This document shows, one piece after another, positions 56,104 through 57,417 of a DNA stretch of 64,000 bases. The stretch is from an uncultured Gammaproteobacteria bacterium. GTDB lineage: Bacteria; Patescibacteriota; Patescibacteriia; Magasanikbacterales; UBA922. The position numbers and the translations under genes are program-made. Numbering within the stretch: position 1 is the stretch's first letter; each line of letters starts with the position of its first letter. Under the pieces are notes generated by a model, which ran no database searches, was not told the origin of the DNA, and worked only from the letters and a program-made list of their open reading frames with translations. The DNA lies in NCBI GenBank assembly GCA_964565405.1, contig CAZMEW010000001.1, forward strand, positions 59,637-123,636, written 5' to 3'.

Positions 56104-56174
56104 CTCGGGGACAGGGATTCGAACCCCGATAGTTGGGACCAAAACCCAAAGTCCTACCATTAGACGATCCCCGA
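56104..56174 (-). tRNA. tRNA-Gln (anticodon UUG), no encoded CCA
   Basis: Acceptor TCGGGGA/TCCCCGA (U1:A72, G73 as in bacterial tRNA-Gln). D-arm GTCT-AATGGTA-GGAC. Anticodon arm TTGGG-TTTTGGT-CCCAA. T-arm CGGGG-TTCGAAT-CCCTG. Confidence 0.8.
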
Positions 56175-56420
56175 ATCTTTAAGAATATTTACTTTTTCTT
56201 CGCGTCCATAACCGGACTTCAAAAATAATTCACGTTTATAAGCTTCTTCCCTAGAGCTATATTCTTCAGTATGAATTACTTTTAATGGCCGATGCCCCTT
56301 TGTCGATCTTGTCTTTCCTGCATTATGATCTTTGATTCGCTGTAGCAAGTCAGACGTACTGCCAACATACGACCAATCTGATTTGATAGTGCTTATCAAA
56401 ATGTATACATAATGCTTCAT
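56160..56420 (-). CDS. GIY-YIG nuclease family protein (small, stand-alone)
   Basis: N-terminal HYVYIL...YVGSTSDLLQRIKDHN matches the GIY-YIG motif. The last 5 codons plus the stop are encoded by the first 15 nt of tRNA-Gln. Confidence 0.7.
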   Translation of the reverse strand: MKHYVYILISTIKSDWSYVGSTSDLLQRIKDHNAGKTRSTKGHRPLKVIHTEEYSSREEAYKRELFLKSGYGREEKVNILKDSGIV

Positions 56421-56471
56421 AAGCCCCCACTTATGTTACATTGAAATGGAACCCCTGCCTGCCGGCAGGTG

Positions 56472-56493
56472 GACCATTAGACAATCCCCGAAT
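56472..56493. repeat. 22-nt direct repeat of tRNA-Gln 5' segment (matches 56155..56176 with 1 mismatch)
   Basis: ACCATTAGACaATCCCCGAAT versus ACCATTAGACgATCCCCGAAT. It lies immediately after the ftsX stop and upstream of the GIY-YIG gene, followed by the palindrome CCTGCCGGCAGG. Confidence 0.55.
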
Positions 56494-57417
56494 TTATGTC
56501 CGCAAATACCTACGCATTGCGAGCATACTCGAGAACAGTGTGAGAAAAAATACTGACCCAAACTGGATTCCGAGTAAAAAGAGTATATGGGACGTGAAGT
56601 AATTTGTCAAGATACTACTAGATTCAAAAATCACACTCATATAGGGATCTAAAAACTTGAGTGTGAACCAGACGACTACCGATGTAATCAGGATACTTAG
56701 AACACTAAAAATAAATGATTCAAAGAGATATGGCCCGCTAATAAACCAGTTTGTCGCTCCGACAAGTCTCTTAATCCCAATCTCAGCTCGCTGAGTGTAG
56801 ATTGCAACCCGAATGGTATTGAAGATAATCACGAACGCGATAATTGCAAATAATGCAGTGAGCGCATAGGTAAACCTCTCTACTTGTAAGGTGATCGTCT
56901 GAATTCGATCAATCGCGGTCTCTGTGTCCCCGAACGTCTTGGCTTCAATAATACTTTCATACTCAGGCACCGAGAGTGCTGTAATAATTTTTTCATAATC
57001 TTTTGGCTCTCTAGTCTTTACAATGAGAGTCGAGCCGAGCGGATTACCACCCAGTTCATTGAGCGAGTCAATAATTTCTGTATTTCCAGAATAGGTTTTT
57101 TTGAAATCTTCGAGCACTTCTTCTCGAGAAAGATATCTCTCTTCGGTGACTTCTGGTAATGATGATACAAAATCACGTACTTCTTTTATCTTCTCTTCAG
57201 TCGCTGTCGGATCAAAATAGATACTCACATCAATCTGATCTTTGACTGATCGGATCGATTGATTGGTTAGCACACGCACGATAATCAGCGTATTAATCGA
57301 GAGTAACATCAAAATTAAAATAAGCACTGTCATAAACGACAGGCTCATATTTCGTATGATATCTTGAAATGAAAATTTGATAATACGACTGACAGACATA
57401 GAAAAATGAAAACTCAA
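56494..57417 (-). CDS. ftsX: cell division ABC transporter permease FtsX
   Basis: 4-TM topology with a large periplasmic loop. KRLVGATNWFISGPYLFE matches the FtsX signature. It is downstream of ftsE. Confidence 0.75.
   Translation of the reverse strand: MSFHFSMSVSRIIKFSFQDIIRNMSLSFMTVLILILMLLSINTLIIVRVLTNQSIRSVKDQIDVSIYFDPTATEEKIKEVRDFVSSLPEVTEERYLSREEVLEDFKKTYSGNTEIIDSLNELGGNPLGSTLIVKTREPKDYEKIITALSVPEYESIIEAKTFGDTETAIDRIQTITLQVERFTYALTALFAIIAFVIIFNTIRVAIYTQRAEIGIKRLVGATNWFISGPYLFESFIFSVLSILITSVVVWFTLKFLDPYMSVIFESSSILTNYFTSHILFLLGIQFGSVFFLTLFSSMLAMRRYLRT

Follow-up and report, generated by a model that had tools for sequence, protein, structure and literature searches.

Why should a gene for a GIY-YIG nuclease of only 86 amino acids (aa) end inside a tRNA gene, and why should a piece of that same tRNA gene be repeated on its far side? 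This question is raised by one locus in the 64-kb stretch of DNA analysed here (contig CAZMEW010000001.1 of assembly GCA_964565405.1; hereafter the window), in which the order on the minus strand is ftsX, a tRNA-like segment, a palindrome, the GIY-YIG open reading frame (ORF) and tRNA-Gln(UUG). We suggest, with a probability of roughly 60%, that positions 56177-56472 are a nuclease-only mobile mini-element that lives in the tRNA-Gln transcription unit, and we infer how it might move. The parts of the locus are as follows:

56103/56104-56174, minus strand: intact tRNA-Gln(UUG) (ARAGORN, and Rfam RF00005 with 58.5 bits).
56156-56176, minus strand: right copy of a 21-nt direct repeat, inside the functional tRNA (tRNA positions -2 to 19).
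56160-56420, minus strand: GIY-YIG ORF of 86 aa, a single domain of the SLX1/UPF0213 lineage (Pfam PF01541, E=2e-16).
56421-56453, minus strand: leader from the palindrome to the ATG (RNA fold of 56415-56500, z=-2.7).
56454-56469, no strand assigned: the conserved palindrome CCTGCCTGCCGGCAGGCAGG in truncated form (16 of 20 nt), part of a 16-nt hairpin.
56473-56493, minus strand: left copy of the repeat, a truncated 5' fragment of a pseudo-tRNA-Gln (positions -2 to 19, C9>T), abutting the ftsX stop codon.
56494-57417, minus strand: ftsX, a host gene and the left boundary of the insertion (Pfam FtsX and FtsX_ECD).
56582-56610, minus strand: promoter-like TTGACA-17-TATACT (11/12 matches), inside the 3' end of ftsX and ~90 nt upstream of the pseudo-tRNA.

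The ORF borrows its stop codon from the tRNA: the final codons, TCG GGG ATC GTC TAA (SGIV and stop), coincide with tRNA positions 1-15, the TAA being supplied by positions 13-15, just as a preliminary description of this DNA had read it. The same description had proposed a 22-nt repeat with one mismatch and 296 bp between the copies; the mismatch and the gap are as stated, while the repeat itself measures 21 nt, with 317 nt from start to start. A match of this kind was found in none of 100 dinucleotide-preserving shuffles. The mismatch is a T9 in the upstream copy against a C9 in the tRNA, and because the tRNA-Gln genes of all relatives have C9, the mutation sits in the upstream copy. That copy was correctly placed directly after the ftsX stop (the boundary is 56493/56494), and the segment of about 296 nt between the two copies holds one ORF. 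The palindrome noticed beyond it, CCTGCCGGCAGG at 56458-56469, begins 3 nt past the repeat, occurs only once in the 64 kb, and belongs to the element.

To see what the locus looks like in relatives, we carried out an empty-site comparison of 31 loci with FtsX orthologues (54-74% identity) from metagenomes; loci are cited here by L numbers. In clean empty sites, tRNA-Gln follows ftsX with neither an ORF nor a pseudo-tRNA; the gap is 14 nt in L112, and in L108, L095, L084/L097, L106 and L094 it contains ordinary promoters of the TTGACA/TATAAT type. Filled sites are represented by L101 and L109. Remnants without the ORF also occur: in L090, tRNA positions -8 to 11, a 16-nt hairpin and positions 23 to 35 are directly repeated ahead of the real tRNA, and L082 has two hairpin inserts. 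The other FtsX loci have no tRNA-Gln after ftsX. Empty, remnant and filled states are scattered over genomes that are equally related to the window, a presence/absence polymorphism at one locus such as is seen for free-standing homing endonuclease genes, and one that recurs between the Algoriphagus loci L037 and L026. The view that a GIY-YIG cassette came to lie between ftsX and tRNA-Gln is borne out by these relatives, and a complete tRNA-Gln downstream of the cassette agrees with the idea that an intact tRNA was regenerated. Since the relatives that lack the cassette lack the repeat as well, the repeat is not a promoter element of tRNA-Gln genes.

The arrangement is not confined to this locus. 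A pattern scan of species-representative genomes yielded at least 552 relatives confirmed by tblastn; the best 80 loci were examined and, together with loci fetched later (about 85 in total), gave 70 pairs of an ORF with a tRNA gene. The two genes are on the same strand in 70 of 70 pairs, with the ORF immediately upstream of the tRNA in 47 and immediately downstream in 23. In 33 of the 47 upstream pairs the stop codon lies inside the tRNA, where the conserved U8-A9-G10 often serves as a TAG. The paired tRNAs are those for Gln, Arg (five anticodons), Leu, Met, Asn, Pro, Cys, Ser, Ala, Gly, Ile, Lys, Phe, Tyr and His, at least 15 isotypes altogether, and the hosts belong to the Patescibacteria, Bacteroidota, Ignavibacteriota, Planctomycetota and Omnitrophota. 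What the preliminary description did not know to be typical of stand-alone GIY-YIG genes is the rule in this gene family. It is no assembly artefact, as cultured isolates (Namhaeicola, Winogradskyella and Algoriphagus) carry the element too. The close homologues from Patescibacteria (60-81% identity) mostly end in SGIV, SRIV or SEIV before the stop, and these ORFs therefore also enter tRNA-Gln. Nuclease clades mostly keep to one tRNA, as with L006 and L010, which share 81% identity and are both at tRNA-Cys across upstream and downstream layouts; in some cases the isotype has switched (L005 at Ala and L049 at Gly, 81%), and one genome bin has copies at different tRNAs (L056 and L067).

In most pairs a partial copy of the adjacent tRNA lies across the ORF, on its far side: a 5' fragment if the ORF is upstream of the tRNA and a 3' fragment if it is downstream, usually identical to the tRNA across 14-59 nt. 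The commonest upstream layout runs from a native promoter through tRNA positions 1 to 22, the 20-nt palindrome, positions 23 to ~34 and a spacer of 0-15 nt to the ATG and ORF, and then into the full tRNA. At single-copy loci the identity usually begins 0-6 nt from tRNA position 1, and it extends further upstream only where a truncated earlier copy of the ORF persists, in decayed tandem arrays. TAnnTTTG boxes, which we take to be the Bacteroidetes -7 promoter consensus, stand ahead of the pseudo-copy in Bacteroidota. With a native promoter and flank before it, the pseudo-copy is the tRNA gene's original 5' end, and the ORF and the working tRNA downstream of it are probably on one transcript. 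In the window, the near-consensus sigma-70-type site within ftsX is retained in L002 and L115 despite the diverged ftsX DNA and codons around it; a coding gene thus probably harbours the tRNA-Gln promoter, from which the pseudo-tRNA, the ORF and tRNA-Gln are probably transcribed together.

Within the Gln-linked clade the pseudo-copies are of very different lengths. In L117 the copy reaches tRNA position 65 and has a hairpin in the D arm and the perfect palindrome in the anticodon loop; in L003, where hairpins have been inserted three times, it reaches position 53. The L002/L109 copy ends near position 45 (34-35 on a second reading), and that of L101, with the perfect palindrome between G22 and G23, at position 38. 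In the window, 19 tRNA positions and 2 upstream nt are retained; CCA, 16 of the palindrome's 20 bases and a degenerate stretch come next. With 21 nt left, this copy is a deletion derivative at a late stage of erosion. The repeat had been interpreted as a target-site duplication, and this interpretation we abandon: it is the stump of a longer pseudo-tRNA, and since the duplicated length varies (19-65 nt in one clade) and hairpins interrupt it, duplication of a fixed length by staggered cuts is ruled out. The duplication is not strictly tied to the ORF either, as units of pseudo-tRNA and hairpin without an ORF exist in L090, L082, L037 and L062. In the last of these (2569-2894), three tandem pseudo-tRNA-Pro units with a period of 108 nt, each with the hairpin GTCGCCTAAGGCGAC in place of the anticodon arm, lead up to the genuine tRNA-Pro, downstream of which comes a GIY ORF.

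At 2810-2885 of L033, upstream of the first pseudo-copy, there is a second, older and more degraded pseudo-tRNA-Gln with a hairpin insertion of its own, which suggests repeated rounds of insertion at one tRNA.

The conserved cis element of the family is CCTGCCTGCCGGCAGGCAGG, a perfect palindrome of 20 nt. Of 81 loci, 23 have it or a near variant; there it comes after the tRNA 5' fragment, with 20-45 nt left to the GIY ATG, and the identical sequence is present in Patescibacteria, Bacteroidota and Planctomycetota. Its usual position is in the D loop, between A21 and G22 (GGTA/GAGC), while the anticodon and T loops are rarer sites. Different hairpins go with the other nuclease clades, TGCGCCAAAGGCGCA plus TCCGCCTCTGGCGGA in one case and GTCGCCTAAGGCGAC in another. 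On a neighbour-joining tree that is crude, the protein being short and no bootstrap having been applied, the type-A palindrome is carried by 34 of 45 terminals in the window's clade and by 3 of 44 elsewhere; the hairpin type thus appears to track the nuclease clade. L105, which has a GIY gene, may be compared with L107, which has none in the locus: the homologous intergenic region differs by three precise hairpin insertions, all in L105 (2491-2510, about 2590-2625 and 2645-2664), namely two 20-nt palindromes and one hairpin of ~34 nt. The palindromes sit in the loops of pre-existing hairpins that are not tRNA, and no target duplication is visible at these insertions in the comparison with L107.

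An exact-match scan of IMG/VR returned 42 copies of the palindrome, one of which adjoins a GIY gene. Solo exact copies in viral-classified contigs (L120-L154) lie far from any GIY gene or tRNA, for example at position 8396 of L128, 1660 of L122, 3391 of L138, 447 of L147 and 7303 of L142. Many of the IMG/VR copies form the centre of another inverted repeat, some lie between direct repeats of 7-14 nt, and that of L144 falls within a tRNA-Met call. Besides its place in the element, the palindrome is thus a dispersed solo mini-insertion, related to its nuclease as the NTS repeats are to ssnA (see below).

The protein encoded between the two tRNA copies is a bare catalytic domain of 86 aa, with no extra domain in either Pfam or an AlphaFold2 model. 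Residues 2-75 match positions 1-75 of the 78 in PF01541, with 60.5 bits against a cut-off of 22.6. R28, H32 and E64 are invariant in 21 homologues and Y6 and Y18 nearly so; by analogy, Y6, Y18, R28 and E64 would fit the GIY-YIG catalytic set (the Tyr of GIY, the Tyr of YIG, an Arg and the metal-binding Glu). The model (predicted local distance difference test score 92.8) has the order E-E-H-H-E-H-H of strands (E) and helices (H), which fits the three-stranded sheet flanked by helices of GIY-YIG domains. Only GIY-YIG structures stand at the top of the Foldseek list, the nearest being BH0048/UPF0213 and the SLX1 nuclease domain (template modelling scores 0.68-0.71; root-mean-square deviation 2.1-2.7 Å for SLX1). 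A profile search of the PDB gave 1zg2 (E=1e-10), 1ywl (1.5e-9) and SLX1 (1.5e-3), and tblastn matched yazA of B. subtilis with 37% identity. The protein belongs to the SLX1/UPF0213 lineage, with 30-46% identity to UPF0213/SLX1-like proteins. The ORF is under purifying selection, with ratios of nonsynonymous to synonymous substitution rates (dN/dS) of 0.01-0.24 in informative family pairs, a range that leaves aside the L034 pair with its mis-registered alignment. Searches against PADLOC defence families and PHROGs phage families gave noise-level matches only, and the sole NCBIfam match, to a group I intron endonuclease, was below threshold. On plasmids and phages there were only weak matches (34-46%), to UPF0213/yazA-type genes of Firmicutes and a few phage GIY-YIG genes.

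Is there evidence that the ORF moves? We compared its synonymous divergence (pS) with that of flanking genes in four informative pairs of loci:

Window and L115: pS of the ORF 0.17 (65 retained codons) or 0.27 (73-codon BLAST alignment); flanking genes (ftsE, ftsX and one more) 0.69-0.74.
L026 and L037: ORF 0.23; flanking genes 0.43-0.57.
L020 and L075: ORF 0.54; flanking genes 0.78-0.89.
L018 and L028: ORF 0.33; flanking genes 0.13-0.27.

The ORF thus falls below its flanks in three of four pairs, with a large sampling error because the ORF is short. The window's closest relative, L115 (GCA_002293825.1), agrees with it in ftsE-ftsX synteny. Across a block that starts midway through the ORF and runs to the tRNA's end, the two share about 93% DNA identity, and directly beyond the tRNA the similarity breaks off. 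In L115 unrelated DNA stands in place of the element's left third; the pseudo-tRNA and the palindrome are lost, and about the first 21 codons of the ORF, including the GIY and YIG motifs, are gone. Elsewhere the element forms tandem arrays (two ORFs with a period of 313 nt in L015, three in L034 and two in L068), and an ORF-less unit in Algoriphagus limi (L037) is absent in A. kandeliae (L026). These features fit a cycle of gain, spread, decay and loss, in which recombination at the same tRNA would be the main route and jumps to other tRNAs occasional.

Based on this, we propose a mechanism in which insertion downstream of the tRNA promoter with the tRNA rebuilt, expression from the precursor, and spread of ORF and tRNA by recombination are, as inferred steps, reasonably supported. 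The element would enter a tRNA gene such that the original 5' part stays upstream with its native promoter, as a dead pseudo-copy, and a complete tRNA is reconstituted directly 3' of the ORF; the pseudo-copy would then gain hairpin insertions in its loops and erode by deletion. Transcription from the tRNA promoter would place the ORF at the head of the tRNA precursor, as its leader. With the stop codon located within the tRNA, RNase P, by cleaving at the tRNA 5' end, would turn the message of the ORF into a non-stop mRNA; expression of the nuclease is probably low for this reason, possibly with tagging by transfer-messenger RNA. The substrate of the nuclease is a guess from two analogies, the SLX1 lineage and the Ssn nucleases discussed below: it probably acts on single-stranded DNA in hairpin or cloverleaf form, and might cut at or near the cognate palindrome or in the loops of tRNA genes. 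The break would then be repaired by homologous recombination with the tRNA sequence as homology, so that the block of ORF and tRNA is copied into alleles of that isotype that are still empty and, from time to time, into other tRNAs, a process that would also yield tandem arrays.

Several observations weigh against a mobile element of this kind. The ORFs of L018 and L028 are no less diverged than their flanks, and between the window and L101 or L109 the divergence of the GIY protein is similar to that of FtsX. The low pS values could partly stem from constraint on synonymous sites, of which the ORF has ~45. A catalytic domain of 86 aa without a DNA-binding domain would be an unusual homing enzyme, and the intact downstream tRNA keeps any site that is cut in empty alleles, which leaves self-immunity without an explanation. 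In IMG/VR, 41 of the 42 palindrome copies lack any GIY gene within 500 nt, which makes the connection of palindrome and nuclease a correlative one. The window copy itself, with its truncated palindrome, may no longer be mobile. Finally, clades faithful to one isotype, together with the L018/L028 divergence, could be produced by long vertical residence or by a host function.

A host function is indeed what the first alternative assumes: a domesticated, tRNA-linked housekeeping or stress enzyme, co-transcribed for the sake of regulation and inherited vertically, with the partial tRNAs as by-products of local recombination. Strong purifying selection, the loyalty of most clades to one isotype and the like divergence of GIY and FtsX between the window and L101 and L109 would all agree with this, and prokaryotic Slx1-like domains are known to be fused or linked to COG4123 and to TrmH-like tRNA methyltransferases (Dunin-Horkawicz 2006, PMC1564403). 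We nonetheless consider a host factor unlikely: presence and absence are patchy in equally related genomes, the closest relative, L115, has a truncated ORF, tandem arrays and ORF-less derivatives occur, and pS is three- to four-fold below that of flanking genes. Near relatives in different phyla have the identical 20-nt palindrome, and a single bin holds copies at different tRNAs (L056 and L067).

If the pseudo-tRNA and hairpin are instead read as RNA, one may envisage a system in which the nuclease targets tRNA or another RNA and the pseudo-tRNA/hairpin RNA serves as a decoy or antitoxin-like regulator, comparable to the repeat RNA of type III toxin-antitoxin systems. The pseudo-tRNA units do lie upstream in the same transcription unit, sometimes in tandem (the three 108-nt units of L062), and the hairpins are placed in tRNA loops or in place of tRNA arms; the linkage of prokaryotic Slx1-like GIY-YIG domains to tRNA methyltransferases (PMC1564403) also points towards tRNA. 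Yet the characterised GIY-YIG enzymes SLX1 and Ssn act on DNA, and Ssn neither bound nor cut RNA (PMC11893778). Moreover, the window's pseudo-copy is worn down to 21 nt next to an ORF that is still intact, the palindrome is also found far from any GIY gene or tRNA, and none of the PADLOC defence-family matches rises above noise. We find this explanation improbable.

A complete and a partial tRNA copy around an insert are also the classical signature of integration (bioRxiv 10.1101/2022.07.05.498093), and the locus might be read as an attL/attR scar in tRNA-Gln, left by an integrase island or a prophage of whose cargo the GIY-YIG gene survives. This is very improbable for an insert of ~300 nt only, when the same ORF-sized insert recurs at about 70 independent loci and in most copies it is the 5' part of the tRNA that is duplicated, an unusual pattern for integrases; no integrase-like gene was seen among the neighbours where these were inspected, although no search was aimed at integrases. 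A chance match, or a tRNA-Gln promoter or processing element unrelated to the ORF, has nothing more than its position upstream of the tRNA to recommend it and, with 0 of 100 shuffles matching and no repeat upstream of tRNA-Gln in element-less relatives, can be dismissed.

We thus return to a mobile nuclease gene in the tRNA transcription unit, and ask which known systems it resembles. The Ssn family comprises site-specific single-stranded DNA nucleases with hairpin repeats termed NTS or SRM (Chenal et al. 2025, Nat Commun, PMC11893778); these enzymes bind a hairpin in single-stranded DNA and cut a few nucleotides upstream of it. As here, the protein is a single GIY-YIG domain of about 90 aa (SsnA has 94), the gene goes with a cognate GC-rich inverted-repeat hairpin whose variants match those of the protein, and hairpins are also dispersed as solo copies; the authors remark on an IS-like 'hairpin-gene-hairpin' layout (PMC11893778). 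The hairpin described here differs in sequence and is a perfect 20-nt palindrome, and the gene is embedded in tRNA transcription units with partial duplication of the tRNA, whereas no tRNA figures in the Ssn paper (PMC11893778). The SRM motif HGTCWYN(0-2)YYVSBRHN(0-5)WNVSBRGN(0-2)RNCYNB was found neither within 200 nt of any ORF (55 kb of flanks) nor in the window. In PLSDB, tblastn gave no Neisseria match to the window protein at E<=1e-3 or to P0020 at E<=1e-2, with two N. gonorrhoeae chromosomes included whose ssnA is unconfirmed, and a search for NTS led to two single-copy sites in Azospirillum that were inspected and have no GIY-YIG gene nearby.

The two gonococcal records (NZ_CP119140.1 and NZ_CP119142.1) are listed in PLSDB as 'N. 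gonorrhoeae plasmids' of ~2.17 Mb, are evidently whole chromosomes, and contain at least 40 NTS matches each. A hairpin similar to NTS/SRM, of the Neisseria Ssn type (CGTCATTCCTGTGAAAGTGGGAATCTGG), is present at 2421-2448 of L115, within the unrelated DNA found there instead of the element's left third, and also in L114 and L116; similar motifs lie at 1464-1491 of L045 and 2803-2826 of L029. Ssn-type repeats seem to occur in these genomes too.

The UPF0213/SLX1-like proteins (BH0048, 1zg2; E. faecalis EF2693, 1ywl; B. subtilis YazA; eukaryotic SLX1) provide the best matches in sequence and fold and are likewise minimal catalytic domains, though at only 30-46% identity. SLX1 cuts branched and stem-loop DNA, an activity that would suit structure-directed action on hairpins or on tDNA cloverleaves. 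We know of no report of UPF0213 proteins that are linked to tRNA genes, associated with hairpins or present in multiple copies.

Seg and Tev enzymes, from phage genomes, exceed 200 aa and have separate DNA-binding domains; compared with such homing endonucleases, the present protein has no separate domain for binding a long recognition site. To our knowledge, Seg and Tev enzymes have not been reported to make partial tRNA duplications or to carry a palindrome. SegB of phage T4 is nevertheless a close parallel, as it is a free-standing GIY-YIG homing endonuclease whose gene lies in a tRNA gene cluster, and it shows preferential inheritance, segmental amplification of the neighbouring tRNA region and presence/absence polymorphism (PMC2330249; PMC13096335).

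The topology of one complete and one partial tRNA copy is identical to that left by integrases in tRNA genes (attL/attR), and the junctions seen here fall in D-, anticodon- and T-loop regions. The anticodon and T loops are classical sublocations of integrase crossover. Elements integrated in this way measure about 9-23 kb (bioRxiv 10.1101/2022.07.05.498093), however, 30 to 70 times more than the present one, in which, moreover, the 5' part of the tRNA is duplicated in most copies. The ~296-nt element has one ORF and no recombinase gene inside, and the Pfam listings of its neighbours contain none that is integrase-like, in the absence of a dedicated integrase search. From transposons that duplicate their target site, the element differs in that its repeats are neither of fixed length nor uninterrupted.

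REP/RAYT and IS200/IS605 systems, to which the Ssn paper (PMC11893778) also refers, likewise combine a small nuclease gene with short palindromic hairpins that are spread over the genome and recognised in single-stranded form. They use HUH Y1 transposases, which cut and rejoin DNA, whereas a GIY-YIG hydrolase cannot rejoin it, and host repair must therefore complete any movement of the present element.

No description of the arrangement or of the palindrome sequence was found in open-access full text or in bioRxiv, so a tRNA-linked GIY-YIG element has apparently gone undescribed so far. Its known kin are nuclease-plus-hairpin selfish systems or homing-type elements, and its distinctive trait is the tRNA-gene lifestyle. 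We speculate further, at odds somewhat worse than even, that a previously unrecognised class is involved, in which a bare GIY-YIG domain of the SLX1-like type and the 20-nt palindrome that it recognises colonise tRNA genes across phyla. The nuclease would cut single-stranded hairpin or cloverleaf loops, and host recombination would copy a block of 'ORF + replacement tRNA'; the host would come to depend on the element's tRNA, its own tRNA promoter driving the element, and the palindrome, at 20 nt and nesting in the loops of other hairpins, would rank as the smallest mobile insertion module known.

A selfish gene of this kind would, in a new way, live in a gene that is essential and highly expressed, with neither intron nor integrase, by keeping the promoter upstream, rebuilding the tRNA and riding on its precursor. 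If this is true, an orphan family of at least 552 relatives, mostly annotated as 'GIY-YIG nuclease family protein', gains its first biological context, and Ssn-type nuclease-plus-hairpin systems extend to Patescibacteria and Bacteroidota. There are also consequences for annotation, as partial tRNA copies and hairpin-split pseudo-tRNAs mislead tRNA calls and ORFs that terminate inside tRNAs mislead gene callers. Hairpin-specific mini-nucleases with distinct cognate sequences are candidate tools for single-stranded DNA.

Some details of the window remain to be added. Its hairpin has a 6-bp stem and a 4-nt loop and is lengthened by pairing of the flanking AATGG and CCATT. The leader contains GGTTCCATTTC, a degenerate stretch that pairs with the D-loop remnant, and a Shine-Dalgarno-like GGGGG at 56424-56428. 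At 56415-56437 on the minus strand a small hairpin, CAUAAGU-GGGG-GCUUAUG, sequesters the AUG of the ORF by pairing and places the Shine-Dalgarno-like GGGGG in its loop, which may serve translational control of the nuclease. In the window as a whole, tblastn found no further copy of the ORF, the three other tRNAs (Asn, Thr and Gly) have no element, and a scan at Rfam gathering thresholds returned the four tRNAs only, so that a group I intron or another known RNA is excluded. The 64 kb contain 6 short GC hairpins (0-3 in shuffles), which do not form a recurring family; the element's hairpin is unique there.

Finally, a number of records titled 'uncultured Gammaproteobacteria bacterium' (bins from binchicken co-assemblies) carry versions of the element that resemble those of Patescibacteria (L002, L024, L032, L043, L045, L047, L051, L056, L061, L065, L067, L073 and L078). 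The GIY protein of L002, which has the FtsX synteny of the window, is 100% identical to that of the metagenome contig L109. The Gammaproteobacteria labels of such Patescibacteria-like contigs look unreliable.

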